Shown: positions 13,975 to 44,946 of the stretch, piece by piece | Position numbering within the stretch: the stretch's first letter is position 1 | Layout of the letters: each line of letters opens with the position of its first letter | From: Candidatus Aminicenantes bacterium | Lineage (GTDB): Bacteria > Acidobacteriota > Aminicenantia > UBA2199 | Length of the DNA stretch: 64,000 nucleotides | Assembly: GCA_030639305.1 (NCBI GenBank) | Contig: DAOWCY010000002.1 | Location: forward strand, 14,974 to 78,973 | Reading direction: 5' to 3' | Program-made: the position numbers and the translations under genes | The notes under the pieces: generated by a model | The model's database searches: none | What the model saw: only the letters and a program-made list of their open reading frames with translations | What the model was told of the DNA's origin: nothing

Positions 13975-14060
13975 GCGCCGGGACGCAGCTTAACAAAAGT
14001 TTTGCGGGGGTCCAGGGGGCAGTTTTTCAAAAGCGCCCCCTGGTCGCCGAAGGCAAGTTT
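13975..14060. repeat. Intergenic repeat copy (CAAAAGTTTTG.. / GGTCGCCGAAGGCAAG modules)
   Basis: Matches 41400-41480 and 19838-19880 (AAAAGTTTTTGGAAG..., GGTCGCCGAAGGCAA). It overlaps the annotated upstream part of the TIR ORF. Confidence 0.7.
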
Positions 14061-14064
14061 TTTA

Positions 14065-27002: not shown

Positions 27003-27165
27003 GCAAAGTTTTTTTGGCGGTACAAGTTCTCCTCTCCCTTAACCCCTCCCCACGTGAAGGGGTCTGCAGTAGGGTTAACAAATTTTTTCTTGGAGGAGCA
27101 GGGTTGTTACTCGAAAGTCCCTTATAGGCTGCCCGTGCCGCGGGGCCGCGGGGCGGGGCTGCCCT
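27003..27165. repeat. Repeat-related GC-rich hairpin segment (CAGCCTATAAGG and CCCCACGTGAAGGGG modules) at the 3' end of the FG-GAP gene
   Basis: The CCTATAAGG module is shared with 12750, 23925 and 48465. It overlaps the last 15 codons or so of the minus-strand gene 27122-30157. Confidence 0.4.
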
Positions 27166-30157
27166 GCTCGATGTGATAGGTCCTGTCGGCACGAACATTT
27201 TTATAGGTCGAGGTTTCACCATTGGGCCAGGTGACACGAATATCTACCGCTTCTGCTTTGCCTAACCCCATATGCTGCGTCTTGGGGTCCATAGATAGGT
27301 AACCGTGACCTCCCCTGATCTCCCTCCAGGCCAGTTGCTTGCCGTCTTTAAAAGCGATAATCTTAGCGCCTATGGCATCGCGGTTGCTTTTCCCGGCAGG
27401 GTCGCCGGTAAGCTCGATCTTTATCCAATGATTCTGCAGCCGCTGGGAATTATTACGGTACACCCTGGCCGGGCCGTGGTAATTGTTCAAAACGATGTCT
27501 AAGTCGCCGTCATTGTCGAAATCTAAATAAACAGTGCTGCGCGAATTTCCCAAAAAATCAACGCCGCTCTCTTTGGAGAAATTCAGCAATTTGCCGCCCT
27601 GGTTGACAAAAAAAACATTGGACTCTTTCTCATAAACAGGCAGCCGGATTTCACGCTTCTCTTTAAAAACGCTGGTGTAATAGGGGGTGTCTGAATAAAC
27701 GCTGTATTCGTTCATGCCGTTGACACAGTACAGGTCGTCATCGCCGTCATTATCGAAATCGAAAAAATCCGCGTCCCAGGACCAGCCGGTGGATGAGAAT
27801 CCCCTGCCCACTAAGTCGGAGAGAACGTAAGATGGCAGTTTCCCGGCACCGGTACTTCCGCCGTCACTTTTGGATAGGAAAAGATCATTGGCTTCGATGA
27901 CCCTCATGCGGCCTAATTTGGCCGGATCGAATTTCATGGTAGTGTTTGCCCCGGGCAGCACGTATTTTTCATCCTTAACCATGGTGACGATGTTGGAGAT
28001 ATAGATGTCGGGATAACCGTCGCGGTTCAGGTCGGTAATGCCTACATTCATAGTAAAAGAAGGTTTGTCCGTGCCTAAAACCGGGGCCACATTCTCAAAA
28101 GTGCCGTCGCCGCGGTTACGGTAATACACATTGACACCGAAATCGTTGCCCACGATAATATCCTGCCAACCGTCTAAATCGAAGTCCGTATGAGAAAGCG
28201 CCTGTCCCCAACCGGTATTGCCTACTCCAGCTTTCCCGGTTACGTCTTCAAAACGCATGTTCCCTTTGTTCCTGAAGAGTTTGTTGGGCAGGGCATTAAG
28301 ATTACTGCGGCTCAAGTTCGGCAGCTTGCCGTGGAGATAATCGCCGAAATAAGCGATGTAAATATCCAACAGGCCGTCCCGGTCATAATCGAATACTGCG
28401 GCAGGTCCACCCACAAGACCTTTACCGCCAAGTCCGCCGGCAGCGGAGACATCGACAAATTTCCCTTTGCCGCGGTTTTTGTACAATTTGTGGTTGTCGT
28501 TTGCATAGGTGATCAAAATGTCCTGGAGACCGTCGTTATCGAAGTCGGCTATAATAGGCTGCCGCGGTTCTCCAAAAGAACCGTCCGGGCGGCGGAACAC
28601 AATGCCCGCCTCCGCGGTGACGTCGCGGAAACGTCCTGTGCCGTCTCCTATATAAAGCGCATTGCCGGAACCGCTTAATAAAAGCAGATCAGGTATGCCG
28701 TCCCGGTTGACATCCCCGGCGGCGGCCCCGGAACCGCCAAAAGCAGGAGGAACCGAAAGGGTGCCGACGGTGGCGCTTTTCTTGAGGTAGCTGCGCAGCA
28801 GGCGGCTGAGCCAGTCGGAAGAACGGTGTTCAAAGACAATACCCGCTGCTTCGGTGACATCGCTGAAATAGGTTTTACCGCCGGATAGGCGGGTGACATT
28901 TTGGCTGGACACTAAGCTGCCGGCAGGTTTATCACCGGGTTTTACTTTGCTGTGTGCTAAAATCCGCCGCTGCACCTCTTGCAGCGCCTTTTCTAAATGC
29001 GCGGTTTTGAGCATTCTCTCACCCTCTTTTTTGGCAGTATCCCCGGCAAGCCGTAAAACCAGGACGCCGAACTGGGCAATGCCTTCGGCCAGGAATTCGG
29101 CGGCAAAAGGATCAGGTTCGATAGATAATTCAGCACTGTGGTCCTGGATGGCAAATTGCAGATAACGCCAATGAATACCGCTGTCGCGGAAGGCATCACA
29201 ATCGTAGGATTCGATGGTCAGGCTGCCTGAACGCTGCAGCCGGGGAAAAAAGATAACATCTTCGTATTCATTAATATCAAAGGGGACAAATGATTGCCAC
29301 ATCTGCTCTACATCGTCCTCGCGGATAAAGGGGCGACCTTTAGCCGCGGCAATTTTTCCGGCATATTTTAAACTGTCGAAAGCAAAAGCCACCATAGCTT
29401 CGGTGAAAAGGTTCTTGAACTTTTGCCCTTCACCCGCGTCGGCGGGCCACCTGTGCCGGGCAAAATAAACTTGCAGGTTCCTCAAAAACACCTGCATCGA
29501 AATCTTATTGTAAGCTTCATAAGATTTGACCTTCTGTGCGATTATTTTTTGGATGGTGGCGAACTTGACAGCCGGTTCCAGGGAGGCTTGTTTTGCCGGT
29601 TGGAGCGGGGATTTCCAAAAATCCGCGTAGGCAAGCTGCTGCCGGGAGACCGAGTTCTGCACGTTATTCCAGGCTTCCCGGAAAACCTGGGGGGTAAGCG
29701 TATACAAGTCGGAAAGTCGCGCCTGCCGGTCAGCCAGTTGTAATACGGTTAAGGTAAAAATATCGACAAATTCTTTCAGAGCGGCGATACTGGGCTGATC
29801 TAAGGGTATCAGGTAAACATCCGTGCGTAACAGCATCTCCTGCTGCAGCGCCAGGATGGCCCGCAGCGCATAAGCGATACTGCCATAATGATCCATATCA
29901 CGTTTGGACAGGGTGATGGGTTCTTTATGGCGCTCCCCCAGGTAAATAAGTAGGGAGCCGCCGGGCTGCCGGGAATATTTTAATAACTTGCCCATCTCAT
30001 CACGAAAATAATCTACCGGGGCCTTTGCGGATTCCCCGGCGGTTTGTTCGGTATCGGAAACCTTTTTCCACAAATGCAGCAGCAGTTTCTTTTGCAGCTC
30101 TACCTTCAAAAACCGCGTTTCAGGAGCAAGTTTTGTGCCGTACATAAAATTTTCCAA
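27122..30157 (-). CDS. Large FG-GAP/VCBS-repeat protein with a C-terminal ASPIC/UnbV domain (CRTAC1 family) and an unknown 450-aa N-terminal domain
   Basis: Repeated Ca-binding-like DxDxDG loops (FDFDNDGDDDLYCVNG, DYDRDGLLDIYIAYFG, DFDNDGLQDIL). The C-terminus IRVTWPNGETSTYKNV is ASPIC/UnbV-like. 1011 aa. Confidence 0.75.
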   Translation of the reverse strand: MENFMYGTKLAPETRFLKVELQKKLLLHLWKKVSDTEQTAGESAKAPVDYFRDEMGKLLKYSRQPGGSLLIYLGERHKEPITLSKRDMDHYGSIAYALRAILALQQEMLLRTDVYLIPLDQPSIAALKEFVDIFTLTVLQLADRQARLSDLYTLTPQVFREAWNNVQNSVSRQQLAYADFWKSPLQPAKQASLEPAVKFATIQKIIAQKVKSYEAYNKISMQVFLRNLQVYFARHRWPADAGEGQKFKNLFTEAMVAFAFDSLKYAGKIAAAKGRPFIREDDVEQMWQSFVPFDINEYEDVIFFPRLQRSGSLTIESYDCDAFRDSGIHWRYLQFAIQDHSAELSIEPDPFAAEFLAEGIAQFGVLVLRLAGDTAKKEGERMLKTAHLEKALQEVQRRILAHSKVKPGDKPAGSLVSSQNVTRLSGGKTYFSDVTEAAGIVFEHRSSDWLSRLLRSYLKKSATVGTLSVPPAFGGSGAAAGDVNRDGIPDLLLLSGSGNALYIGDGTGRFRDVTAEAGIVFRRPDGSFGEPRQPIIADFDNDGLQDILITYANDNHKLYKNRGKGKFVDVSAAGGLGGKGLVGGPAAVFDYDRDGLLDIYIAYFGDYLHGKLPNLSRSNLNALPNKLFRNKGNMRFEDVTGKAGVGNTGWGQALSHTDFDLDGWQDIIVGNDFGVNVYYRNRGDGTFENVAPVLGTDKPSFTMNVGITDLNRDGYPDIYISNIVTMVKDEKYVLPGANTTMKFDPAKLGRMRVIEANDLFLSKSDGGSTGAGKLPSYVLSDLVGRGFSSTGWSWDADFFDFDNDGDDDLYCVNGMNEYSVYSDTPYYTSVFKEKREIRLPVYEKESNVFFVNQGGKLLNFSKESGVDFLGNSRSTVYLDFDNDGDLDIVLNNYHGPARVYRNNSQRLQNHWIKIELTGDPAGKSNRDAIGAKIIAFKDGKQLAWREIRGGHGYLSMDPKTQHMGLGKAEAVDIRVTWPNGETSTYKNVRADRTYHIEQGSPAPRPRGTGSL

Positions 30158-30237
30158 CCGGGTGGCAGTGGCATGGCACTTGGGATCCCGGTTACTTTCT
30201 AATTTTTCAATCTCACAGATGGTATCCGAAACAGCAG

Positions 30238-30480
30238 CTATTTTTTTTTTCTACTTTTTCCACGGCTGATAGATTCATTACCGCCGGGAAAAATATCACC
30301 GGGAAAAGTATAAGCATTCCCGTTATTCTTATTACTTTGATAGGATGCGGACGCAGGCCGCTTATATTTTTGTTCATAACTACCTCCTCGCGCCCCCGGC
30401 AGGGGTGGTGGCGCACCAAAAGCCGGGAAATCAGAAACTCGAAACTGCGTTGTTTCAAACAATTCCAAATTGCCGGGCAT
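30238..30480 (-). CDS. Hypothetical small basic protein, frame uncertain
   Basis: 80-aa ORF with an AAGGAG RBS 12 nt upstream of ATG 30480. The alternative overlapping frame 30213-30458 has no RBS. Low complexity. Confidence 0.25.
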   Translation of the reverse strand: MPGNLELFETTQFRVSDFPAFGAPPPLPGARGGSYEQKYKRPASASYQSNKNNGNAYTFPGDIFPGGNESISRGKSRKKK

Positions 30481-30744: not shown

Positions 30745-32688
30745 TTATTTTAAGATGTTTTCAATCTTTTCATCATCGGGAACAACCATTTTCTCACTGA
30801 TCTTCGCGGTAAAATAGAGGTTGCTCGAGAGATACAAAATAACAACTCCCTGCCGCAGCAGCTTGTTTATGTTCTCGATCAACCTGTTGGTAAAAGTCTG
30901 CGACATCCCTTTTTCAATCTCATTAATCAGGAAAATCTTACTCTTTTTCAACCGCGCCGGTGCAAACAATATATCACTTTTGCCGGCATCATCGAGTTCG
31001 GAAATTCCTTTTTTCCTATTGCTAATTAGGTTCTTTTTTCCGACAATTTTTTTCGCTTTCCCGGCAGGCACACGCAGTAATCTTACAAAGAAGGAGGTAA
31101 AATCCCCGACCTTTATGTCGGGGGGAATACTTTCCGGATGACATAAGTAAACGAAATCCTTCATGTTTTTCCCTCCTATTTCAAGTGCTGCGCCGTCGAT
31201 CTCTATTTTCCCGGCGAAGTCCTTACTTTTCCCGGATAAGAAATTATAGAGAAGCTCCCTGAGCTGCTGCGATGAAGTGATACAGGCGGTAACTTTTCCT
31301 GTCTTGAGTTCTATATGCAGTTTATCATACCTGCGAACCTTTTTTTCACCGATATTAAAGAGAGATTTTTTAAACCCTGAATAAGAGAACGCAAAGAGCA
31401 CTATAATATAGAAGATATTCAATGCCAGGCCCAGCCCGAAATAGCGGGGCAGTGTACTCCCGGCATAAAATAAATTTTCTTCGTCCTTCACGAAAGACTC
31501 CACTTTCTCGTGGTTGGAATAGAATTTTTTGTTCAGATAGAAGCGGATAAATTGCCGTTTCAGTTCCTGCACATAGGAGTAGAATTCGATAAAATTATTA
31601 AACCCGCGGCTGCTGATTTCATTACTTACCGACAGGTAAAATGATGTAGGGAACAGCGCAGAAAGTCTTTGAAAGCCTTCTATTCGATCTCTCATCTCAT
31701 TTATCATTTGGGTTTCCGTGGCCTGTATCTTCGCAAATTCATCTTTCCAATAGGTTTCGATCAGGGTGTGAACTTTTTCTGATTTCCTGTTTTCGGGTTT
31801 ATATCTACCTTCCTTTTCTATAGCTTTTTTCTCGAACTGAGAAAATATTTTCAATTTTTCCATTTCTAATTCGTAGGTAGAGGTGATGCTTTTCGCTTGT
31901 TGATGAACCAGGGTGTCGATAGCTGCGGTAACAAAGTAGATAGTGATAAACCAGATGACGATACAGGCAGCGGCGCTGCCGATCTTCGATTTGGAGGTTC
32001 CTAAAAAAGTTCCCACGGCAAAAAAGAACAGGACTAAAAGCAAGATGACCGACAGGTAAATAAGCAAACAGTAATAATCATTCCTGCCAAAAGAGATGCC
32101 GTTAATTTTAACCAGGCCTAATGAGAAGGCTGTTGTAAAGAGAAAAAAGAGATAAAGTAAAATGATCCTTGAAATCGAAATGCAGAGAAAAATTTTCCTA
32201 TGATGAATAAAGCTGGACAAGAATTTTAGATATTCTTTGTAACGGAAAGAGTCATATCCAAAATAAAGGGCGATAAGACTTCCCAGGATGAATATAATCC
32301 CGGAAAAGTCATTGAAGCCGTCGGCTTTTTCAACAAATAGATTTTCGCCTTTTAGAGATTTGTAAATTTTTAATCTTTCACCTGAATCCACATAGGATGT
32401 TAATTCCGATATAACGCCTGAATTATTGAACAGGACACTCAAGGGGGAAGAGATCAGTAATAACCTGAAGCCATAGGTGCCGTATTGGGTATAGTTAATA
32501 TATTGGCGAACTTTGAATTTTTCGATTTCATGGAATCTCTCTTTGTTTTTTTGTGAATCCTTATATTCACCGATTCCCGATTGGACAAAATAAGTAATTA
32601 AGAGCAGCATAATGAGCAAAAAAGCTATATTCTTTAGACGAAAGAATCTTTTTGATTCGATCGAAAAGAAAGCTTTAAATGGACTCAT
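30745..32688 (-). CDS. Polytopic membrane protein with a C-terminal cytoplasmic domain of weak ABC-ATPase-like character
   Basis: Start moved to ATG 32688 (MSPFKAFF), 1 nt after the upstream stop. There are at least 6 TM helices. The C-terminal 200 aa carry degenerate Walker-A/Q-loop-like and LINEIEKGMS Walker-B/D-loop-like segments. No canonical GxxGxGKS/T. Confidence 0.55.
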   Translation of the reverse strand: MSPFKAFFSIESKRFFRLKNIAFLLIMLLLITYFVQSGIGEYKDSQKNKERFHEIEKFKVRQYINYTQYGTYGFRLLLISSPLSVLFNNSGVISELTSYVDSGERLKIYKSLKGENLFVEKADGFNDFSGIIFILGSLIALYFGYDSFRYKEYLKFLSSFIHHRKIFLCISISRIILLYLFFLFTTAFSLGLVKINGISFGRNDYYCLLIYLSVILLLVLFFFAVGTFLGTSKSKIGSAAACIVIWFITIYFVTAAIDTLVHQQAKSITSTYELEMEKLKIFSQFEKKAIEKEGRYKPENRKSEKVHTLIETYWKDEFAKIQATETQMINEMRDRIEGFQRLSALFPTSFYLSVSNEISSRGFNNFIEFYSYVQELKRQFIRFYLNKKFYSNHEKVESFVKDEENLFYAGSTLPRYFGLGLALNIFYIIVLFAFSYSGFKKSLFNIGEKKVRRYDKLHIELKTGKVTACITSSQQLRELLYNFLSGKSKDFAGKIEIDGAALEIGGKNMKDFVYLCHPESIPPDIKVGDFTSFFVRLLRVPAGKAKKIVGKKNLISNRKKGISELDDAGKSDILFAPARLKKSKIFLINEIEKGMSQTFTNRLIENINKLLRQGVVILYLSSNLYFTAKISEKMVVPDDEKIENILK

Positions 32689-32689
32689 A

Positions 32690-33364
32690 CTACATTTCCT
32701 GTTTAATCGAGTTGAACACCTGGGCGGCGTATTGCCCATAAAGTAGGGTTTGAGCGTATTGGGAATTAATCTCCCAGAGAAGAGGTATAGAAGGAAATTT
32801 GTTTGCTTCGATTTCTTCTTTCAGCAAATTTAATTTCACTGAGATATTTTCCACATCGGATTTTAAGCGGTGAAAAATAGCCCTGATGTTTCCTTTACTT
32901 AAATCTGCTTCAACCTCATCGAAAATTTCGCTGTTCAAACCCTTTGCTACCCTGAAAGCCTTATAATCGAGGCTTTCCAATTTAGCGACGGCGATTTCGT
33001 TATAAAGTGTCGCATCCGCGGTTTCGACTAAACCGGAATAGGTTTGCCCTGCGTTTTTCATTTTTGTCAACGCGCCGTCGACCAGGATTTGCAATTCGTT
33101 AAAGCCGTAGGTTTTCGAATCCCATAATTCAACCCGGTTCAACAGGAGCACAAAGTCTGAATAAGAATCTAAGTAATAACCTGCACCCGAAACGACATAC
33201 TGCTCGAGGGTCATGGCAGAACCGGATTCTGCACTCTTTAAGGGTGAGTTAAACGCGACCGGCGCGTCGTTACCCATGATGTACGCAAAAACGCTTGTGC
33301 TGCCTGCTAAAACAAGAATAGCCAGCAGTGTTCCCAAAAGTAACTGAAATCTGTTTTTTTTCAT
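32690..33364 (-). CDS. Secreted hypothetical protein
   Basis: Signal peptide MKKNRFQLLLGTLLAILVLAGSTSVFA. 224 aa, helical. Translationally coupled to the downstream membrane protein. Confidence 0.5.
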   Translation of the reverse strand: MKKNRFQLLLGTLLAILVLAGSTSVFAYIMGNDAPVAFNSPLKSAESGSAMTLEQYVVSGAGYYLDSYSDFVLLLNRVELWDSKTYGFNELQILVDGALTKMKNAGQTYSGLVETADATLYNEIAVAKLESLDYKAFRVAKGLNSEIFDEVEADLSKGNIRAIFHRLKSDVENISVKLNLLKEEIEANKFPSIPLLWEINSQYAQTLLYGQYAAQVFNSIKQEM

Positions 33365-33799
33365 TATTTCCTCCTTTTTCAGATTTTTTTTGGTTTAGGA
33401 GTGGATTATATCAAATACGGAGGTATTTTTCAACCGTTTGGTTAAAAATAAAATAATTTATGTGACATTTGGATAAAAAACCGGGGCATGTCGTGCTCAC
33501 ATATTCAGTAAAGCACACTTGTCTTGCAGGCTATAACTGGATTATTCCGGTATGGAGTAAGAATAACGGTAAGCTTAAAAGATCCTTTCTATGCAACGAT
33601 TTGGAAAAATTTAGGCTTTCACTACTCTCCCCGGCAAAAAAAAAGCGGGAAGGATTTTCCCCGGCTTAATATCCGGGTCAAACCGCTTCCCGCTTTTGTC
33701 TTAAAGACCTTAGTGCCGTGCGTCGCACGTGCTGCGCTATTCGACGTTATCCCCCCTTGTTAGGCGGTTTCGTCTTACGCGCAAAGTCTAAAAGATCGT

Positions 33800-35440
33800 T
33801 TATTTATCTTTTTGAGATTTTTTTTCTAATTTTACGATTCTTTTGTTAAGAGAGTCGATGGTTTCCTGCTGCTTTTGCACCACTTTGGTTAACACAGCCA
33901 CTACGTCCATGGGACTCATCCCTTTTCTATCTTTACTGGCAACCAGGTCGGGAACATCTTCAGCGATGAAACCCACATGGCCGTCGCTGTCATCTTTCTT
34001 ATATTTAAACTTAACGGGAGTGAGACCTTCTAAAGTGTTCAGAGCTTCACCGGCATCGAGGTTTTCGATGTCTTTTTTATATTCCCGGCTGGAACCATTA
34101 ATCCAGTCGCCGCCGTCGCAATAAGCGCCGCCTTTTAAATGTAGTAAGTGCGAAACAGTCCCCATATCAATACCGATGCCAACCTGTCCATCAGCGGTGT
34201 CGGCGTTTAACCTCATTACCACCAAGCTATTATTTACCAGGAAATTGAGCGGTTCGGGTCCCCTGGAGCCGATCTGCACTGCGTTGCCGGCAGCAGCGAA
34301 TTTGCCCGAGATGCCGGAGGAGGTATTTTCGACCACCATGAGGCTATTGCCAGCTTCTACTACATGCAATTCGAATAGCGGGTCATCGGTGCCTATACCG
34401 ACGTTACCGTCAGAATCGATGTCGATAGAGCTGCTGGGAGCCCCGGGCCTGATCCTGAAAGGCAGCGTGGAGCCGTTGGTGGCGTCGCGGATAAAAAAGT
34501 TGGCTTCGTTACCGGCTACGTCCCAGGTCTGGGGAGTGAACCCGGATGAACCGTCCTGCTCTAAACGCAGGGTGGGTGTGTTGCCGTCTTTCACGTGGAG
34601 CTGCACCACGGGAGTGGAGGTGCCTAAACCGACCCGGCCGCCGTCGTCTACGTAGAGAGAGCTGGTGGGCGCTCCGGCTTCGACTAAAAAGGGCTTCCTA
34701 CCGCCGTCTATATCTTCTATAGCGAAATAGTTGCCCCCGCCGTTGGCGCTGTCGTTGACCGTAATTTGCCAATCGCGAGAGGGAAAAGAAGAGGTGCTGC
34801 TGGTATCCACGAACCTGATACGCAGGTTGTTCTCTTTTAACCTGATGGTATCGAAACCGAAAGACTCACCGTTTACGCAGTCCATACCGACGCAGATGCT
34901 GCCGTCTACGATAAGGTCGTCGAGGATGACCTGGTCATCCGGTAGTTCGGGGCCGTCGTCGCCCTGCACTATCGCCGGGTTTGTGTTCCGGTTCCCCTGT
35001 TTGCCGGGTTCCAGGAAACCACCGGTGACAATGGAGCCGCCGCGGACGGTAAAAGCGCCGGACTGCACTAAAGGTTCCGTGGTGCGCCTGCTATCTCTCA
35101 AACCGGGATTGCCGTCGATTTCGCCCGCTTTGCGTAACTTTACTTCATTGGGGACAAGGCGCAGTTCATAATTATAGGAGCCGTCAACGATACTGCCTTT
35201 GTTTTCCGATAAATCGAAATAGGCGCTGCCGCCGGATTCGAAGGTTTTGCTAAACACCGTGCCGTCGGGCCGGGAAACAGTCAGGAATATTTTGCCGCCG
35301 GACACTTTAGGCAGCCAATGGATGCCGTTGGAACCGACGCTCACTTCGGCCACCCGGTTGGATTCCGCCGCAGCCGAAACAGCAAAGATCAAGACTACTG
35401 CAGCACACATTACAAAAACTTTTCTTGTTTTTCTACTCAT
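33800..35440 (-). CDS. Secreted beta-helical fibre-like protein with C-terminal Peptidase_S74 intramolecular-chaperone domain (paralog 1)
   Basis: Start at ATG 35440 (MSRKTRKVFVMCAAVVLIFAVSAAA) with a GGAGG RBS. C-terminus SSREYKKDIENL...LTPVKFKYK...GHVGFIAEDVPDLV matches the autoproteolytic chaperone of endosialidase and tail-fibre proteins. Confidence 0.7.
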   Translation of the reverse strand: MSRKTRKVFVMCAAVVLIFAVSAAAESNRVAEVSVGSNGIHWLPKVSGGKIFLTVSRPDGTVFSKTFESGGSAYFDLSENKGSIVDGSYNYELRLVPNEVKLRKAGEIDGNPGLRDSRRTTEPLVQSGAFTVRGGSIVTGGFLEPGKQGNRNTNPAIVQGDDGPELPDDQVILDDLIVDGSICVGMDCVNGESFGFDTIRLKENNLRIRFVDTSSTSSFPSRDWQITVNDSANGGGNYFAIEDIDGGRKPFLVEAGAPTSSLYVDDGGRVGLGTSTPVVQLHVKDGNTPTLRLEQDGSSGFTPQTWDVAGNEANFFIRDATNGSTLPFRIRPGAPSSSIDIDSDGNVGIGTDDPLFELHVVEAGNSLMVVENTSSGISGKFAAAGNAVQIGSRGPEPLNFLVNNSLVVMRLNADTADGQVGIGIDMGTVSHLLHLKGGAYCDGGDWINGSSREYKKDIENLDAGEALNTLEGLTPVKFKYKKDDSDGHVGFIAEDVPDLVASKDRKGMSPMDVVAVLTKVVQKQQETIDSLNKRIVKLEKKSQKDK

Positions 35441-35734
35441 TTTTACCTCCTGCAGCCCATCGAACATAACCAATTTTGTTACATTGACGACTACTACTTT
35501 ATTTTTTAAAAATTTCTCAGTTTACAAAAAACACCGTCATGAACGCTAAAGACACCGTCTTTACAAATTTCTTTCATTTTTTAGGATGCAAACCGCACCC
35601 ATATAAATGCCCCACAATACCAGATTTGTTTCATTATAGATTATAAATATAACCAACAATGAAACAAATGTCAATAGGAAAAATGAAAAAAAATGTTTCC
35701 AGGTGTTTTTTTTTAGCTGCGTTTTACTAATACT

Positions 35735-35826
35735 TCGTGAAAGTTAAACAAACTTTTCGGTCAACGTGGTCGGGGATGTGTTTCCCAGGTCCCTCATAAG
35801 GTGCGGACGCCGTCTGCGTCTTGAAA
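35735..35826 (+). repeat. Family-D repeat copy
   Basis: GTGAAAGTTAAACAAACTTTTCGGTCAACGTGGTCGGGGATGTGTTTCCCAGGTCCCTCATAAGGTGCGGACGCCG is homologous to 37832-37927 and 25751-25834. It lies on the plus strand between two minus-strand genes. Confidence 0.75.
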
Positions 35827-35949
35827 TAAGGATTTAGTTATTCTTTCCCCTTAATATACAGCTTTTGATAGTATAAAAAAAAAGCGGGAAAAGCTTGCCC
35901 GGACAACATGTCCGGGCAGACCTTTACCCGCTTTTTCAACGGTTTGTTT

Positions 35950-37554
35950 TTATTTATCTGATTGGGACTTCTTCACAAGTTCGTTAACTTTTTTATTCAG
36001 ATCGGTGATTGTTTTCTGCTGTTCTTTAACAACCCTGGTTAAAACAGCTACGACATCCATCGGACTCATCCCTTTTCTATTTTTAGTGGCTACCAGGTCG
36101 GGAACATCTTCAGCGATGAAACCTACATGACCGTCGCTTTCATCTCTCTTATATTTGAATTTAACGGGAGTGAGCGCTTCTAAAGTGTCTATCGCTTCAG
36201 CGGCCTCGAGATTTTCGATATCTTTTTTATATTCCCGGCTGGAAGCATCTGTCCAGGTTGAACCGTCGGAAAAGGCGCCGCCGCTTAACTCGAGCAGGTG
36301 AGTGGGATTCGTTTGGCCGATGCCCACCTGGCTGTCGGTATCGATAGTCAGCACTTTGGTGGAGTTATTGACGACAAAATGTACTTTGTCGTTGGTCGCG
36401 GAACCGAATTGCGCCGCGTTTGAACCGGCGGAAATCTTAGCTGCGGCGCCGCCGGTGTTCTCGATACCGAAGGTGGCTGTAGTCGATCTCGATACATGCA
36501 AATCGTAAGTGGGGGCCCAGGTGCCTACACCTACTTTATTATCCGCCCTGAGAGTGAGAACGCTGCTGGGCGCCCCGGGCTGGATCCTGAAAGGCAGCGT
36601 GGAACCGTTGGTCACGTCGCGGATGAAGAAGTTGGTTTCATTTCCGGCTGCGTCCCAGCTCTGGGGGGCGAACCCGGACGAACCGTTCTGCTCTAAACGA
36701 AGAGTAGGAGTGTTGCCGCTGACGGCGTGGAGGTCCACCACGGGAGTGGAGGTGCCGAATCCCACCCGGCCGCCGTCATCGACATACAGGGAGTGGGTAG
36801 GGGCTCCAGCCTCGATGGAAAAAGTCCTCCTGCCGGCAGTCGAATCTTCTATGCCGAAATAAGATGCCCCGCCATTGGCGCTGTCGTTTATAACGATACG
36901 CCAATCGTTGCTGGGGAAGGACGCGGAGGAACTGGTGTCATCGAAGTGAACGCGCAGGTTATTTTCCTTTAACCTGAGGGTATCGAAACCGAAACTCTCG
37001 CCGTTCACACAGTCGAAACCGATACAGGCGCTGCCGTCTACGATGAGGTCGTCGAGAAAAACCTGGTCATCGGGTGATTCGGGGCTGCCGCCTAACGAAT
37101 TATAGGCCGGAGGATTTTTCGCTTCCATGGAGCCGCCGGTAACGATGGTCCCATGGTGAACTCTAAAAGCGCCGGACTGCACTAAGGCTTCCCGACTTTG
37201 GACGCTGCTGCCTTCCGCTCCGAAACTAACAGATGTATCGCCCTCTTTCCGCACCTGTTTACTAAAAGGGGTGACTACAAGTTCAAAGTTATAAGTACCG
37301 TCGCCGCTGTTTCCTTTGTTTTGCGAAAGATCGAAATAGGGAGTGCTCCCGGCTTCGAAGACTTTACGAAAAACCGTTCCGTCGGGCCTGGAAACAGTCA
37401 GGGTAATTTTTCCGTAAGATACTTGGGGCAGCCAACTAACTCCATAGGCGCCGACATTTACTTCGGCCACCCGGTTGGATTCCGCTGTACCTGGAAAAGC
37501 AAAGACCAACAAAAACGCTGCAAACATTAAAAAAGATTTTCTTATATTTTTCAT
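35950..37554 (-). CDS. Secreted fibre-like protein with C-terminal Peptidase_S74 intramolecular-chaperone domain (paralog 2)
   Basis: About 60% identical to paralog 1 across N-terminal, central (DDLIVDGSxCxGxDCVNGESFGFDTLRLKENNLR) and C-terminal (SSREYKKDIENLEA...GHVGFIAEDVPDLV) regions. Signal peptide present. Confidence 0.7.
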   Translation of the reverse strand: MKNIRKSFLMFAAFLLVFAFPGTAESNRVAEVNVGAYGVSWLPQVSYGKITLTVSRPDGTVFRKVFEAGSTPYFDLSQNKGNSGDGTYNFELVVTPFSKQVRKEGDTSVSFGAEGSSVQSREALVQSGAFRVHHGTIVTGGSMEAKNPPAYNSLGGSPESPDDQVFLDDLIVDGSACIGFDCVNGESFGFDTLRLKENNLRVHFDDTSSSASFPSNDWRIVINDSANGGASYFGIEDSTAGRRTFSIEAGAPTHSLYVDDGGRVGFGTSTPVVDLHAVSGNTPTLRLEQNGSSGFAPQSWDAAGNETNFFIRDVTNGSTLPFRIQPGAPSSVLTLRADNKVGVGTWAPTYDLHVSRSTTATFGIENTGGAAAKISAGSNAAQFGSATNDKVHFVVNNSTKVLTIDTDSQVGIGQTNPTHLLELSGGAFSDGSTWTDASSREYKKDIENLEAAEAIDTLEALTPVKFKYKRDESDGHVGFIAEDVPDLVATKNRKGMSPMDVVAVLTRVVKEQQKTITDLNKKVNELVKKSQSDK

Positions 37555-37599: not shown

Positions 37600-37831
37600 G
37601 TTTGCCGTAAGGCCCTATTATGTAATAAAAAACCCCTAATGTCAACCAAAAAAGTAAACTTTTTTTTAAAATTAATTTTTACCGTTAATTCCTGCTCGTG
37701 TGATTGACATTGTTCCTCTCTTTTTTATATAATAAAGAAAAAGATTTAGGAGGCATACGATTAAAAAACATAATAATTCTATAATACTATTAATAGTAGC
37801 TGCAGCGGCATTCGTTTTTTTACTACTACCC

Positions 37832-37927
37832 CGTGAAAGTTTGCTAAAAAAACAAGCTTTTGGGTCAACGTGGTCGAAGATGCTTTCCCCAGGCCCCTCA
37901 TGGGCTGCGGGCACCGCCCGCTTCTTG
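37832..37927 (+). repeat. Family-D repeat copy overlapping the annotated 5' end of the TPR/FG-GAP gene
   Basis: TTTGGGTCAACGTGGTCGAAGATGCTTTCCCCAGGCCCCTCATGGGCTGCGGGCACCGCCCG is homologous to 35735 and 25751. Confidence 0.75.
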
Positions 37928-40900
37928 TTTATAGGTTCCTCAGCGAAAGGTGAAAAAGAACTCGATGCGGCGGCAGTTGCCGCCAACAACCGTGGCGCTG
38001 CCCTGATGGGGCAATTCGATTACGAGGCAGCGAGGCAGGTATTCGAGAAACTGGCGCGAAAGTATCCCCGCAATTGGGACATACAGGTCAACCTGGCTAT
38101 CGCGACTCTTAACCGTCAGAAAGAGGGCGATGAGAAAACAGCCCTAAGCCTGTTGGAAAAGGTACTGAAAAACGACGGGGAGCACCTGCGCGCCCGCTAT
38201 TGCTGCGGTTTGTTGGAGCTGCATGGGGGGCGACCGGATAAAGCCCTCGGTTATCTCCAGGCCGTTTTAAAAACAGACCCGGGAGACGCGGAAGCGATCT
38301 ATTTCACCGGCAATACGCTTACGCAGCTTTCTCGCCATAAAGAGGCGCTCGGCTTTTTTAATCGTACTATTGCCGCCGATCCTTATATCCGCAGCGCTTA
38401 TTACGGCAAAGTCATGGCCCTGAGACAATTAGGGAGAACGGACGAAGCCTATGCCGTGATGGAGGAATTTCAGCGTCTGAAACATAATCCCCGCACCCGC
38501 CTTATAGAGTTCAAGTATACCAGGATGGGCCGCAAGGCAGAGGCGCTGGCCGTCGATTTTCCGCATCCGCCGGCAGCGAAAAAACCTGTCGGCCCGCTGT
38601 TTAACCCGGTAGAAAGGATTGCCGGTAATAAAGAAATAAAATGGCGGCGCACCGCGGCACAGGGCGCACCGGCGCGTCCCGGTATCACCATATGTGACAT
38701 TAACGGCGACGGCAGCCCTGATATATTTATTCCCGGGGCAATCGAAGTGCCTGCCGGGATCGGTAATGCCCTACTGCTTGGGAATCCCGCCGGGAAGTAT
38801 ACCATAGACACGGGGCATCCCCTGGCCGGCGTTACCGCGGTCAATGCCGCTCTCTGGGGCGATGTAAACAACGACGGTTTCGTTGACGTCTACCTCTGCC
38901 GTCATGGAGCAAACCGGCTTTTTTACCGGGATGCGACGGGCAGTTGGCAGGACGTCACCGCTGAAACCCAAACCGCCAATGGCAGTTTCGACACTGTGGA
39001 CGGCGCTTTAATCGACGCCGACCACGACGGCGACTTAGATATTTTCCCGGTAAACGCTAACGGCCCCAATGAGCTCCTCAACAACAACCGCGACGGCACT
39101 TTCCGGCCCCTGGCCGCCAAATACGGCCTGGGCGGTAACGGCGCTCCCTCTAAGTCGATCGTCGTTACCGACTTAGATGCCGACCGTGATGCGGATTTGA
39201 TTATTATTAACGAACGCCCGCCCCACGAAGTATACGAAAACCGGCTCCTCTGGGAATACCGGCCGGCAAAAGGATTCAAGGCATTCACCGCGGCGGATAT
39301 CGGCGCAGCCGCGGCCGGGGATGTGGACGCCGACGGCAGTATAGAGATATATACCCTGGATACGAAAGGGATTCTTTATCGCTGGCAGCCGAAGACAGGC
39401 AATACCTGGGCAGGAGAAGCCCTAAACAAAGAAACCGGACCTAAAAAAACCGGTACGGAACCCCCGTGGCAGCCCCGCTTAGCGCTGTTAGATGCGGATG
39501 GTGACGGTGTGCTGGACGTCTTCTTGTCCGGCCCTAACGGGCTGTGGGCGGCCTCCTTTACCGGCGCCGGTCTGGAACCGCTTTTTTTGACAGCGGGGCA
39601 AAAAGAGAAAAACAAAGCCGCTGCCTGGGCTGTTTTCCGCTCTTCTAAGGGGCCTGTTCTATTCGGCTGGTCGCCGGGCGAGCCTCCTTTTTTCAGGCCG
39701 CCCGGGCCCGGCAGGTATTCCTTTGCTGCTTTGGAACTATCAGGTAAAGAGAACCCGGATTCCCAGTGGCGTTCCAATGCATCGGGGATCGGCACACGAT
39801 TGTCGGTGCGTGTGGATTCGCGCTGGACGGTGTTGGATACGTTCCGCAGCCACTCAGGTCCGGGCCAGGGGCTGCAGCCCGTAGTAGTAGGGCTGCGCGG
39901 GGCAAAGCGTATCGACTTCGTGACCATCGACTGGCCTGACGGAGTGCTGCAAACCGAACTTAGCCTGAAAGCAGGAAAAACCCATCGTATTTTTGAGACC
40001 CAGCGCCAGTTATCCAGTTGTCCCGTGCTCTTTGCCTGGAACGGGAAAGAATTTGCTTTTGTCAGCGATATACTTGGCGTAGGCGGAATAGGCTATGCGT
40101 TGGCGCCCGGGGAATACTCCGAACCGCGGCCCTGGGAACGTTTTTTGCTGCCCCCCGGCCTAATGCAGCCGCGCAGTGGACGCTTGCTAATCAAGCTGAT
40201 GGAACCCATGGAAGAAGTGGCCTATATAGATGCAGTACGGTTGAAAGCATACGATTTGCCGCCCGGTTGGTCTATGGCTTTAGATGAGCGAATGGGAATC
40301 AGCCCGCCTCTGCCCACGGGACGCTCTATTTTCTATCGAAACATATCGCTACCCCTGGCGGTGACAAACGAGCGCGGCGCGGATGTGACCGCGGCTGTAA
40401 TAAAGCGGGATTTGCATGCAGCGCCTTTAGGAAAATTAGACCGGCGTTTCATCGGTAGGCTCGAGCAGGATCACGTGCTGACTATTACTTTTCCCCGGTC
40501 ATTAGATAGCTGGTCCGGTCAGGCTGTCCTGCTGGTTGACGGTTGGGTAGAGTACCCTTATTCGCAGACCAATTTTGCCGCCTGGCAGGCCGGGGCGGAT
40601 TACCGCGCTCCTACGATCGAAGTGCGCCGGCCTGACGGTTCATGGATACCGGTCCTGGAACAATTCGGTTACCCGGCGGGTATGCCGCGCCGGATGGCCG
40701 TGCCGCTGCCCCCTCTGCCGGGGGGCGTTCGCCAAATTCGCCTCAGCACCAACCAGGAAATCTACTGGGACCGGCTGGCAGTTGTTTTTGCCGAAACCTG
40801 TCCCCGGGTGGAAGATCGAGAATTGGTTTTAGCTTCGGCACGACTGGAACAGGTTGGATTTCCGCAGCGAACAGATGGGGAGCAGCGCCTTCCTTTTTAT

Positions 40901-41245
40901 GATTTTGGGAAACGCAGCCCCTTTTGGGACACGCGCCGTCCGGAAGGATTTTATACCCGGTTCGGCGGTATCGAAGCATTAGTAGAGAGCAAAGATAATG
41001 CTCTCGCTATTTTCGGCCCGGGGGAGGGCATGCACATAGAGTTCAGGGAGCCGGGAACGCCTGTCGAGAAGGGTTGGACCCGGGTTTATGTATTGGAAAC
41101 CGACGGTTGGTGCAAAGACATGGATATTTATACGCGAAGCGGCGACACGATAGAACCGGTGCCCCATACAGGGAAACGCACTGCCCACGCGGACAGCCTG
41201 CATCGTTTGTACAATATTAGGTATCACGGTGGAGGAGAACGTTAA
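37879..41245 (+). CDS. TPR-repeat plus FG-GAP/VCBS-repeat protein with a C-terminal ASPIC/UnbV-like region (CRTAC1 family). Start uncertain.
   Basis: N-terminal TPRs (aa 40-200), then DxDxDG repeats (CDINGDGSPDIFI, GDVNNDGFVDVYL, DADHDGDLDIF, DLDADRDADLIII). The first in-frame ATG (37879) lies inside a repeat, so the true start may be downstream (TTG near 37924 or ATG near 38002). Confidence 0.7.
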
Positions 41246-41521: not shown

Positions 41522-43315
41522 ATGAACAAAGCAAATAACAAGACACACAAAAGAAACAAAAAATCGCTAATAATAAGTATATTTCCAGCGCTGATTTTGT
41601 GCGCCGCACTGCATGAAACAATTACGCTGCATGCGGCAGGGCCAGCGCCGAAGGAAGCGCCCCTGTTCACAGATATCGCTAAAAAATCGGGCCTGGATTT
41701 CGTTCACTTCAACGGTATGTGCGGGGAGTACTATTTTCCTGAAATGACAGGCCAGGGCGGTGGTTTTTTCGATTATGACAACGACGGCGACCTGGACGTA
41801 TATCTCATCCAGGGCAATAAATTAGGGTCGGATAAAACCTTTAAAGACGCTCTCTATCCACCTCGCGATCCCAATCCCCGGGACCGCCTGTTCCGCAACG
41901 ACCTCACTATAGACGCCAAAGGCAAAAGAACCATACGCTTCGTAGACGTGACCGATAAAAGCGGACTGCGGATGACCGGCTACGGGATGGGCGTTGCTGC
42001 CGGAGATTTTAATAACGACGGCTGGATAGACCTTTATATCACAAATTACGGCGCTAACCGCATGTTGTTCAATAAAGGTAACGGGACTTTCGTCGATGTA
42101 ACCGAAAAGAGCGGCACCGGCGACACTCTCTGGGGCGCCAGCGCCGCCGTGTTCGATTATGACCGCGACGGCTGGCTCGACCTGTATGTGGCCAACTATG
42201 TCTATTTCGATGTGAATGGGAATAAGAAGTGCTTTGCCAGGAGCAGCCGCCGTGATTACTGCGGCCCCGCTTCTTTCCCACCCCAAAAAGACCGCTTCTA
42301 TCACAACAAAGGAGACGGCACGTTTGAAGATGTCACCGACAAAATGCTGGTCAACTACCATCCCGGGGCAGGGTTGGGGCTCATTGTTTTAGATGTAAAC
42401 AGCGATGGCTGGTTAGACCTTTATGTTGCCAATGACGGCCACCCGAACCAACTCTGGATAAATGATAAAGGCAAACTCTTTAGAAACGATGCCCTGTTCG
42501 CCGGCGCGGCCTTGAACCAAAACGGATCGGCAGAAGCCAGCATGGGAGTGACCGCGGGAGATTTCGACAACGATGGTGATGAAGACCTATTCATGACTCA
42601 CCTGATGGGCGAAACCAACACACTGCAAGTCAATAACGGTAAGGGCCTTTTCGAAGACCGCACCATCGCCACGGGGCTTTCTGCCGTCAGTTTCCCTTTT
42701 ACCTCCTTTGGAACCGGCTGGGTCGATTACGATAATGACGGCTGGTTGGATATTCTTCTCGTCAGCGGGGCCGTGCGCATCATCGAGAGCCTGGCAGCGG
42801 CGGGAGATCCGTATCCTATCCACCAGCCCAATAAATTGTTCCACAGCGAAGGCGGTAAAAAGTTCACCGAAGCTACTGCCCGGGCCGGTAAGGAATTCGT
42901 CCTTTCGGAAGTGAGCCGCGGCGCAGCTTTCGGCGACGTGGACAATGACGGCGACACCGATGTGCTGGTATGCAATAACAACGGCCCCACCCGGCTGCTC
43001 CGCAACAACCGGGGACAGCAAAACAAATGGTTAGGGCTGCGCTTGATGGATGCAAAAAAAAAACGCGACCTGCCGGGCACTTTTGTGGGCTTAAAACGAA
43101 AAGGAAAACCTACACTGTGGCGGCGGGTGCGAACCGAGGGCAGCTACTGTTCCACTAACGATCCCCGCATCCTATTCGGCCTGGGCGAAAGCGCTGCTGT
43201 GGATGCCGTAGAAATTTTTTGGCCGGACGGTACAAAAGAAGTTTGGCAGAAACCTGCGCCCATGAAATACACCACCCTGTGGAAAGGAGCAGTAAACAAG
43301 AAGGAGACACCATGA
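41522..43315 (+). CDS. Secreted FG-GAP/VCBS-repeat protein with ASPIC/UnbV C-terminal domain (CRTAC1 family)
   Basis: Signal peptide. Seven DxDxDG-type repeats (DYDNDGDLDVY, GDFNNDGWIDLY, DYDRDGWLDLY, DVNSDGWLDLY, GDFDNDGDEDLF, DYDNDGWLDIL, GDVDNDGDTDVL). C-terminus LGLRLMD...VEIFWPDG is the ASPIC/UnbV signature. Confidence 0.8.
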   Translation: MNKANNKTHKRNKKSLIISIFPALILCAALHETITLHAAGPAPKEAPLFTDIAKKSGLDFVHFNGMCGEYYFPEMTGQGGGFFDYDNDGDLDVYLIQGNKLGSDKTFKDALYPPRDPNPRDRLFRNDLTIDAKGKRTIRFVDVTDKSGLRMTGYGMGVAAGDFNNDGWIDLYITNYGANRMLFNKGNGTFVDVTEKSGTGDTLWGASAAVFDYDRDGWLDLYVANYVYFDVNGNKKCFARSSRRDYCGPASFPPQKDRFYHNKGDGTFEDVTDKMLVNYHPGAGLGLIVLDVNSDGWLDLYVANDGHPNQLWINDKGKLFRNDALFAGAALNQNGSAEASMGVTAGDFDNDGDEDLFMTHLMGETNTLQVNNGKGLFEDRTIATGLSAVSFPFTSFGTGWVDYDNDGWLDILLVSGAVRIIESLAAAGDPYPIHQPNKLFHSEGGKKFTEATARAGKEFVLSEVSRGAAFGDVDNDGDTDVLVCNNNGPTRLLRNNRGQQNKWLGLRLMDAKKKRDLPGTFVGLKRKGKPTLWRRVRTEGSYCSTNDPRILFGLGESAAVDAVEIFWPDGTKEVWQKPAPMKYTTLWKGAVNKKETP

Positions 43316-44946
43316 AACGATTACCTGTTTCTATTCCAGTGCTGTTAATTTTTGCCCTATCTTTTTTTCCCCCGGCTGAGCCGGTGGGATTAAAGGGACA
43401 GGCAGCTCCCACCGGGCAAAACAAAAAGGGTTCTGCACCGGCAGAGGGTTTAATACCGGTGCCGACGCCTCAATTGCAGCATCTCGAAAAAGCGGTAAGC
43501 GATCAACTTCGCGAAGGGAGAAGAATGGTAGACGCTGTTGTCCGAACTGCTTCGGTAAGCCTGGAAGAACGGGCCCGGGCCTATTGCGATCTCGGACAAC
43601 TGTACCACGCCTACAAACTGACCGATGCCGCGGAGGCCTGTTATCGCAATGCCGTATTCCTGGCCCCCTCTACTTATGAGTGGAACTACTGCCTGGCCTC
43701 TCTGCTGCAATCGCTGGGCAAATATTCGGAAGCGCTGGAATTCTACCGGCAGGCCGACGCCATGGAAAAGAAACCTATCCTGGTCTATTTAGTAAAAATA
43801 CGAATTGGGGAATGTTATCTAAACCTCAACCGATCCGGCCTGGCAAAACAGGCTTTCGAAGCTGCTTCCCTGGTAAAGCCGCAGGGCGCGGCGGTGCAGG
43901 CAAGACTGGGCGAAACGGCGCTGCGGGAAAAACGGTTTGACGACGCCATTCGCTATTTCCAATCAGCCCTAAAAACTCAGCCGGATGCGAATAAACTATT
44001 CTACTCATTAGGCATGGCTTATAGAGGTAAAGGGGATATGGAACAGGCCCGTCTCCATCTCTCTAAGTACGGTAAGGTAGGTATCCAGCCCCCGGATCCC
44101 TTAAAAAAACGCCTGGAAAAGTTGATACAAGGTTACCGGGTCCATTTACTGGCAGGTAGGCTGGCCTATGCCGCCGGACGCTATGTGGAAGCTGCCGAGG
44201 AATTCCGCAAGGCAGTGGAGGCTAACCCCCAAAAAGCAGCGGGGAAAATAAACCTGGGCTCTACCCTGGGATATTTAGGGAAGTACCGCGAAGCGACTAC
44301 CTTTTTCCAGGCTGCGCTGCAAATAGCGCCGGACAATGTGACGGCTCATTTCAACTTAGGCGCCATCTACAGGTATCTCGGCAATTATGATACAGCGATA
44401 AAACATTTACAGGTGGTTGTTGAAAAAAGTCCAAAGGATGCGAAAGCCCATTTGACGCTGGCCGATGCCCTGCAGGAAAACCGCCGGTTGGAGAAAGCTT
44501 TTGAACACTACCGGGCTGCCCGCAAACTCGATCCCGGGATGACTTCGCCCTGGATCAACATAAGTCAGTTGTCCTCTTTAGCCGGCCGGTACGACGAGGC
44601 GCTGCAAGTATTGGAGGATGCCTATTCCCGTATGCCCCACAATGGGCCTATAGCGCATGCCCTGGCCCACCGATTGGCCGCCTCGCCCGATGGGAGCAAG
44701 CGGCAGGGAGAGCGAGCGTTAGAATTGGCATTAAAAGTTTACCGGGTCAGGCAAAACTACGAATATGCCAGGACTGTGGCCATGGCCTATGCTGAGTTGA
44801 ACCGCTGCGAAAAAGCGATAGAGTGGATGGAAGTGGCTATAGAGTTGGCGGCAGGTTCTCCGCAAGCGGGTTCCGTATTGAAAGTTTTGCAGCGTAATCT
44901 GGCCCATTTCAAGAGCAAACGCCCCTGCCGGGTGCCGGCAAAATAG
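43312..44946 (+). CDS. Secreted TPR-repeat protein
   Basis: Start ATG 43312 overlaps the upstream stop (ATGA). Signal peptide MKRLPVSIPVLLIFALSFF. At least 8 TPR-like units (AEACYRNAVFLAP.., ALEFYRQA.., AFEHYRAARKLDP..). Confidence 0.7.
   Translation: MKRLPVSIPVLLIFALSFFPPAEPVGLKGQAAPTGQNKKGSAPAEGLIPVPTPQLQHLEKAVSDQLREGRRMVDAVVRTASVSLEERARAYCDLGQLYHAYKLTDAAEACYRNAVFLAPSTYEWNYCLASLLQSLGKYSEALEFYRQADAMEKKPILVYLVKIRIGECYLNLNRSGLAKQAFEAASLVKPQGAAVQARLGETALREKRFDDAIRYFQSALKTQPDANKLFYSLGMAYRGKGDMEQARLHLSKYGKVGIQPPDPLKKRLEKLIQGYRVHLLAGRLAYAAGRYVEAAEEFRKAVEANPQKAAGKINLGSTLGYLGKYREATTFFQAALQIAPDNVTAHFNLGAIYRYLGNYDTAIKHLQVVVEKSPKDAKAHLTLADALQENRRLEKAFEHYRAARKLDPGMTSPWINISQLSSLAGRYDEALQVLEDAYSRMPHNGPIAHALAHRLAASPDGSKRQGERALELALKVYRVRQNYEYARTVAMAYAELNRCEKAIEWMEVAIELAAGSPQAGSVLKVLQRNLAHFKSKRPCRVPAK

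Follow-up and report, generated by a model that had tools for sequence, protein, structure and literature searches.

Two tandem fibre genes on the Aminicenantes contig

The 64,000-nucleotide stretch of DNA from an uncultivated, sediment-dwelling Candidatus Aminicenantes bacterium analysed here (contig DAOWCY010000002.1; referred to as the window, whose position numbers are used throughout) carries two adjacent genes for exported proteins that end in a phage-type Peptidase_S74 (S74) chaperone domain. We refer to them as fibre genes A and B; both, with all of their features given below, lie on the minus strand. Gene B (35950..37554) encodes 534 amino acids (aa) and has AGGAG before its ATG. The open reading frame (ORF) of gene A extends to a TTG at 35473 (33800..35473, 557 aa), and GGAGG lies 5 nt upstream of an ATG at 35440, so this ATG is the likely start and the protein of gene A (33800..35440) would have 546 rather than 557 aa. 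The first-pass annotation of the window, made from the sequence alone, had described two tandem paralogs about 60% identical; the ORFs were found as it gave them, and BLASTP aligned the two proteins over their whole length with 336/545 identical residues (62%, E = 0). The closest relative of B anywhere was A (62% versus at most 58% for any other sequence), and therefore the A/B duplication is lineage-specific, though old. Recent gene conversion between A and B was considered and rejected, since no identical stretch exceeds 32 nt and 60-nt windows of the coding sequence vary between 37 and 92% identity.

Sigma-70-like promoter sites were scored by consensus match. Upstream of B lies TTGACA-17-CATAAT (37617..37645, -35 box at 37645) and upstream of A TTGACA-17-TATATT (35646..35674, -35 box at 35674), each with 11/12 matches to the consensus. 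A hairpin with a T-run, read as a terminator, follows B (35880..35935), and a similar one follows A (~33640-33700; 33646-33663 in the terminator scan). Because each gene has its own promoter-like site and its own downstream hairpin and T-run, A and B look like separate transcription units, each of which appears to have its own promoter and terminator.

A further element of ~110 nt lies upstream of both fibre genes (35715-35829 and 37823-37935). Its two copies are 67-72% identical, in intergenic DNA that has otherwise diverged to 15-42%, and its core, CGACCACGTTGACCNAAAAGNTTGTTT, occurs twice in the window (0 copies expected) and in none of 85 other fibre loci. A divergent TPR-FG-GAP ORF, described below, overlaps the B copy with its 5' end. 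RNAalifold, run on just these two copies, gave 3 compensatory pairs.

Domain architecture of the fibre proteins

Domain borders of B were set by using a 43-member family alignment and its conservation profile, and the equivalent segments of A are given alongside. Both N-termini read as Sec signal peptides of the signal peptidase I type, as the first-pass annotation had proposed: MKNIRKS-FLMFAAFLLVFAF-PGTA/ES in B (residues 1-24, 37483..37554) and MSRKTRKV-FVMCAAVVLIFAV-SAAA/ES in A (35366-35440), with predicted cleavage at the slash. The B peptide has a basic n-region, a 13-residue hydrophobic core and small residues at -3/-1, and the N-terminal hydrophobic segment is kept across the family alignment. 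It is followed by a moderately conserved N-terminal domain (N-domain; B residues 25-140, 37135..37482, with a variable insert at 101-120; A 35021-35365), modelled as a beta-sandwich with weak FN3-like Foldseek matches; this is the only well-modelled part of the AlphaFold monomer of B (pLDDT ~80). After a variable linker (B residues 141-160) comes a conserved core (B residues 161-354, 36493..37074; A 34361-34942; family conservation 0.7-0.86), which consists of a neck and modules 1 and 2 and holds many invariant Asp, Glu, Asn, Arg and Trp residues. The neck, at the start of the core, carries the invariant C177/C182 in the motif GSxCxGxDC. No Pfam or NCBIfam model covers either the N-domain or the core.

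The central repetitive region noted in the first pass resolved into three homologous modules (hhalign probability 98.8%, E 1e-16, between modules 1 and 2; 96%, E 2e-9, between modules 2 and 3). In B each module is closed by a VGxGTxxPxxxL capping-loop-like motif (residues 264-275, 341-352 and 410-421). Module 3 (B residues 355-425, 36280..36492; A 34130-34360) lies beside the predicted cleavage site, varies within the family alignment and is the most divergent region between A and B, with 39% identity versus 74% in the core and 82% in the S74 domain. Both the modules and the C-terminus have matches among the PHROGs tail-fibre families.

The S74 domain occupies the last 97 residues of B (438-534, 35953..36243), preceded by the modules, and residues 450-546 of A in ATG numbering (33803..34093). 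Pfam PF13884 (Peptidase_S74, gathering cut-off 22 bits) matched A at 461-509 with 40.1 bits (E 4.6e-10) and B at 438-486 with 36.6 bits (E 5.5e-9), both above the cut-off, and the C-terminal peptides quoted in the first-pass annotation are present verbatim. The assignment of B also draws on PHROGs, on matches to 8hqz_d and 7dc3 in the Protein Data Bank (PDB) and on the alignment with 8ojn, and that of A on the A/B alignment. The Ser-Lys dyad, written SSREYK with Lys five residues after Ser, is Ser438/Lys443 in B (codons 36241-36243 and 36226-36228) and Ser450/Lys455 in A (codons 34091-34093 and 34076-34078). Conservation of Ser438 across the 43 family members is at least 90%, and Lys443 does not vary among them; among 54 scorable fibres of many phyla, SSxxxK occurs in 43/54 and SDxxxK in 10/54. 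The dyad region of B aligns with those of an L-shaped phage tail fibre and of the myelin regulatory factor MYRF. The predicted cut in B falls between Ala437 and Ser438. A long helix is predicted for residues 498-533 in the monomer model.

Relation to Bdellovibrio MAT fibres and other S74 proteins

The single PDB sequence match of B was 8OJN, which is Bd3182; this protein belongs to the S74 type among the mosaic adhesive trimer (MAT) fibres of Bdellovibrio (Caulton 2024, PMC10769870). A search of the family profile against the PDB returned 6 matches, of which 4 were the MAT fibres Bd2133 (8ond, E 1.2e-9), Bd3182 (8ojn, E 2.1e-6), Bd1334 (E 0.003) and Bd2439, aligned through the modules (entries also 8oml and 8ol4). 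The other two were a T5-like L-shaped tail fibre (8hqz_d) and MYRF (7dc3), both through the S74 part. Foldseek searches with the low-confidence model placed Bd2133 first in the PDB and S74 tail-fibre proteins first in BFVD, at 12-19% identity, and are supportive only. By sequence comparison, MAT fibres are the closest characterised relatives of A and B.

The correspondence extends to the cleavage site. In the family profile alignment, the chain end of cleaved Bd3182 (...SAWTVA) aligns with ...STWTDA of B, directly before Ser438; because the aligned ends sit at this point, Ser438 is the counterpart of the proven Bd3182 nucleophile S782, whose replacement (S782A) blocks cleavage (PMC10769870).

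In MAT fibres (Bd3182; PDB 8OJN, 8ONB, 8ONC, 8OND) and in A/B alike, a beta-rich N-domain comes straight after the signal peptide, beta-helix modules with capping loops of the form V-G-x-G/N-x-x-x-P-x-x-x-L then repeat, and a C-terminal S74 domain carries an S-x4-K dyad; both are encoded by chromosomal non-phage genes with several paralogs per genome. S74 and non-S74 C-termini also occur in both families, as seen in a homolog (L116:2086-3768, minus) that is 42% identical to B over N-domain, core and modules and has a non-S74 C-terminus; this gene is divergently adjacent to a long-class FG-GAP/ASPIC gene, a neighbour type described below. The MAT N-domain is conserved and beta-rich, measures ~130 aa and sits after the signal peptide, with no PDB homolog (PMC10769870), whereas that of A/B is a beta-sandwich of ~115 aa with weak FN3-like matches. 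A and B thus show the testable defining features of S74 proteins and of MAT fibres, the N-domain likeness being one of position and beta-rich fold only. They differ from MAT fibres in having half the length (534-546 aa versus ~1,000 aa), a dyad motif of SSxxxK rather than SDxxxK, tandem arrays, recurrent FG-GAP/ASPIC neighbours and a host that is not a known predator; in several arrays, moreover, the N-domain is more variable than the tip.

Phage fibres (K1F endosialidase, T5 pb1, the DT57C-type L-shaped fibre and the GA-1 neck appendage) share with A/B the C-terminal S74 Ser-Lys dyad; in phages the domain sits at the end of a trimeric beta-helical fibre, and A/B match one such fibre, 8hqz_d, directly by sequence. 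Unlike phage fibres, A/B have a Sec signal peptide and no virion context, and their N-domain and core are absent from phage collections. MYRF is another non-viral host protein in which an S74/ICA domain carries out trimerisation-dependent self-cleavage, and the fibre profile matched 7dc3 across the dyad region. Unlike A/B, it is a membrane-tethered transcription factor, and the parts in common are one capping-loop-like element and S74.

Family size, spread and tandem arrays

Relatives of the fibres are encoded at 252 loci in species-representative bacterial genomes, in phyla such as Acidobacteriota, Thermodesulfobacteriota, Bacteroidota, Verrucomicrobiota, Planctomycetota, Campylobacterota and Proteobacteria. 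Shewanella waksmanii ATCC BAA-643 (locus L015) and Marinicella sediminis F2 (locus L042) are examples of cultured carriers. With the core alone, the number of matching representative clusters was 4,859 at E<=1e-3 and 1,520 at E<=1e-30, and its identity across phyla is often 60-79%. Recurrent neighbour clusters identified in the larger locus set were non-phage and included glycan-biosynthesis and surface-protein genes; sulfatase genes lie near fibres in 10 loci, the window among them. The S74 domain, MAT fibres and MAT-like proteins in several phyla were already known. New here are a strong expansion of the fibres, with tandem arrays, in Aminicenantes and Acidobacteriota, their occurrence in many taxa without a reported predatory habit, and the hyper-conserved core domain of ~190 aa, which no domain model covers.

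Among the fetched loci, 17 carry two tandem fibre ORFs, six carry three and five carry four to six, with five paralogs in the Aminicenantes metagenome-assembled genome L003 and six in L004 as examples. In three of the four arrays L003, L004, L006 and L007, identity at synonymous sites is raised in module 3, and because of this rise the module may have undergone partial gene conversion in those arrays, as the sequence comparison suggests.

Two sets of giant proteins touch on the family. Giant proteins of 1,700-4,900 aa (P0185-P0188, P0268, P0276) contain two or three copies of the fibre core, and giant DUF7933/DUF11 repeat surface proteins of 1,200-3,300 aa adjoin fibre genes in 9 loci (L013, L015, L016, L046 and L068 included).

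Proposed mechanism

We modelled the mechanism on the S74 biology of endosialidase, T5 pb1 and Bd3182. The parts follow one another in the order signal peptide, beta-sandwich N-domain, flexible linkers, Cys neck, three beta-helix-type modules and S74 chaperone. Sec would export the protein, after which the C-terminal S74 domains of three chains would align them and template an intertwined triple beta-helix; A and B fibres are probably trimeric. The Ser-Lys dyad would then cut just before Ser438 (B) or Ser450 (A) and release a 97-residue fragment, leaving a mature fibre of ~410 residues per chain on display at the cell envelope or beyond it. In this fibre the N-domain would form the proximal end, and module 3, newly uncovered at the distal end, would serve as an adhesin that binds a ligand, probably a glycan. 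MAT and phage precedents, together with the glycan and surface gene neighbourhoods, argue for such a surface-adhesin role with glycan ligands, and, since module 3 is where A and B have diverged most, the two paralogs would have different specificities. That A and B are exported S74-terminated fibre proteins in a non-phage context we hold with high confidence, and we consider the full mechanism, surface adhesion by the A/B fibres included, to be likely. If so, phage-type self-cleaving trimeric fibres would be a common chromosomal surface component well beyond predatory bacteria.

Several observations weigh against this mechanism. The core is unusually conserved for a passive shaft, and this conservation hints at a function beyond that of a simple adhesin. 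In the arrays L003, L004, L006 and L007, module 3 is the region most similar between paralogs (0.74-0.86), and the N-domain (0.50-0.55) and the linkers diverge most; a diversified tip is therefore unsupported as a general rule of fibre arrays. The A/B motif has Ser in its second position (SSxxxK) rather than the canonical SDxxxK. For A and B we identified neither an outer-membrane route nor an anchor, and we infer their trimerisation and cleavage by analogy with characterised S74 proteins. The AlphaFold monomer of B is poor overall (pLDDT 61), as would be expected of a chain that belongs in an intertwined trimer.

Alternative explanations

The S74 domain and the PHROGs tail-fibre matches would also be expected if A and B were leftover tail-fibre genes of a degraded prophage, tailocin or contractile-injection system, and a near-identical partial copy of protein B (same 90%-identity cluster) is named "tail fiber domain-containing protein" by NCBI. 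The first-pass annotation had reported no other phage genes nearby and had named adjacent capsid, tail or terminase genes, or the lack of an S74 profile match, as grounds for abandoning its reading. The S74 match is described above, and scans of all ORFs of the 64-kb window with Pfam and PHROGs found no capsid, terminase, portal, tail, sheath, baseplate or integrase gene; phage genes were likewise absent from the called-gene tables of loci L001-L004. Sec signal peptides are unexpected on fibres that are assembled into virions in the cytoplasm, and the homologous loci, more than 80 across many phyla, have chromosomal surroundings of surface or glycan genes. Only 10 of 50,697 phage genomes matched B, the best at 24.6% identity over 71% and the others in the S74 part only; a family-alignment scan of 2.9 million viral contigs gave 30 relatives, nearly all confined to residues ~425-530. 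Identity in the S74 part was 25-39% across these collections, which share essentially only that part with the fibres. On the absence of phage structural genes and on these two collections we rejected a prophage remnant, which is extremely improbable: A and B are ordinary chromosomal genes of a large bacterial family. The first-pass annotation had left the choice between a surface fibre or adhesin module and a domesticated phage structure. The former fits the MAT family; the latter, taken as recent domestication of a phage gene, is unsupported, because only S74 and the generic module type are common with phages and the N-domain and core belong to an old bacterial family. It follows for annotation that "tail fiber domain-containing protein" calls of the A/B type should not be read as prophage markers.

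S74 was first described on an enzyme, endosialidase, and the fibres could instead be secreted tailspike-like enzymes, with the core as a glycan depolymerase or esterase that works with sulfatases and FG-GAP/ASPIC proteins in polysaccharide foraging and with S74 as just a folding chaperone. The strong conservation of the core across phyla, its many invariant Asp, Glu, Asn, Arg and Trp residues and the nearby sulfatase genes are in keeping with this. Pfam, NCBIfam and the PDB gave no match to a glycosidase, lyase or esterase family, however, the core repeats are homologous to non-enzymatic MAT modules, and a module of ~80 residues leaves little room for a catalytic beta-helix, so we regard such an enzyme as rather unlikely. 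A fibre for predation or cell-cell attack that recognises the envelopes of other bacteria, as in Bdellovibrio, would suit the fact that the sole characterised homologs act in prey recognition, and MAT-like proteins of 417-1915 aa in several phyla have been grouped under "predator-associated lifestyles" (Table S3, PMC10769870). Yet no predation-linked genes were found in the window, and fibres of this family are present in Shewanella, Marinicella, Rhizobiaceae, Methylococcaceae and many Acidobacteriota as well. We know of no report of a predatory habit in these groups, and a predatory role for A and B seems very unlikely. Membership in an anti-phage defence system was rejected as well, PADLOC giving no matches for the fibres or their partners.

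FG-GAP/ASPIC and TPR partner genes

The first-pass annotation had also placed the fibre genes among genes for CRTAC1-like FG-GAP/ASPIC proteins, TPR proteins and a large membrane protein. These neighbours are as described, the membrane protein being of ABC-2 type, and the FG-GAP/ASPIC and TPR part of the setting is not incidental: it recurs beside fibre genes across phyla, with the FG-GAP/ASPIC family as the main recurrent neighbour. The window holds three of its members: a long-class gene downstream of the fibres on the same strand (27122-30157, or 27122..30375 across a frameshift, minus); a divergent gene for a TPR, FG-GAP and ASPIC protein of 1134 aa with an uncertain start codon (37841..41245, plus), which belongs to recurrent neighbour cluster 1; and a short-class gene (41522-43315, plus) followed by a TPR gene (43219-44946, plus), a pair (41522..44946) that recurs beside fibre genes in other genomes.

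For the neighbour count, ORFs of 86 loci (85 fetched loci plus the window) were clustered, with L002 dropped as a duplicate of L001; cluster 7 is a probable artefact of antisense ORFs inside fibre genes. Within 10 kb of fibres, 34 FG-GAP/ASPIC genes were found in 32/85 loci, often with a TPR gene. Twenty of these 34 genes are no more than 500 bp away from a fibre gene, and 15 of the 20 share its strand; if genes were placed uniformly inside 10 kb, ~5% would come that close, and the excess has P ~7e-18. Pfam confirmed FG-GAP_3 in four partner genes of other phyla and UnbV_ASPIC in three of the four. The recurrent gene orders are fibre-long FG-GAP, short FG-GAP-TPR-fibre and fibre-short FG-GAP-TPR, and all three partner architectures surround the two fibre genes of the window. 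Searches that started from the partner N-terminal region found a fibre gene nearby in 1/6 sampled loci, a sample biased to fragmented gene calls, and on this result an obligate fibre-partner operon was rejected; the one fibre among these loci has a non-S74 C-terminus. No co-variation was seen between fibre N-domain type and partner class. The linkage of fibre, FG-GAP/ASPIC and TPR genes is thus statistically strong, facultative and new here, no paper in the library searched linking S74 fibres with FG-GAP/ASPIC proteins.

The surface element bound by the MAT N-domain was called unidentified in the work on MAT fibres (PMC10769870), and the FG-GAP/ASPIC and TPR pairing offers a concrete candidate for fibre anchoring or assembly, the question left open by that work. 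Tentatively, and with odds that we put well below even, fibres and FG-GAP/ASPIC propellers, often with a TPR protein, might form a two-part surface system in which the propeller serves as an envelope dock or as an assembly or export factor for the N-domain or core. Such a system would identify the surface partner of MAT-type fibres and assign a first function to the CRTAC1-like (UnbV/ASPIC) proteins that are widespread in bacteria.

Two further observations concern the long-class partner. In the window, a frameshift within an A10 run at ~30243-30252 breaks the gene for this protein in two (ORFs 30213-30458 and 27122-30157, minus): the signal-peptide segment MNKNISG...AVMNLSAVEKVEKK lies in one frame and the continuation ...DTICEIEKLESNRDPKCHATATRLENFMYGT..., which matches the conserved N-terminus of intact homologs, in another. 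The frameshift could be an assembly error, slipped-strand phase variation or the mark of a pseudogene. The N-terminal ~400 aa of the protein (28838-30157, minus) were modelled by AlphaFold with pLDDT 84.7 and pTM 0.83 as two similar helical halves, and the top ~40 Foldseek matches in the PDB were all histone-fold doublets, with marginal E-values (>=1.4e-3); they include single-chain H2A-H2B, the M. kandleri histone, the SOS histone domain, Melbournevirus doublets and DUF1931 (1wwi). The long-class partner may thus also carry a histone-fold-like doublet domain; homologs carry signal peptides, and such a domain would therefore be exported, in fusion with a beta-propeller.

Other genes in the window

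Directly downstream of A lie two genes (30745-33364, minus): one, which has its own TTGAAA-17-TATAAT site, encodes a 224-aa protein of unknown family with a signal peptide, and the other, overlapping it, encodes a 664-aa ABC2_membrane_2-type protein with a degenerate ABC-ATPase-like C-terminus. Clustering of the 86 loci showed neither gene to be conserved beside fibre genes elsewhere, and the 224-aa protein had no informative PDB match. The rest of the window holds housekeeping genes (E2/E3 dehydrogenase, LipB, Ffh, RimM, TrmD, FTCD and IspG), transporters and a multihaem cytochrome; it contains no tRNA and no Rfam match. Two further loci are likely defence genes that appear unrelated to the fibre cluster: a 974-aa TIR, NACHT/AAA_16 and TPR protein (14002-16926, plus) and two adjacent Eco57I-type restriction-modification methylase genes (54407-59027, minus).

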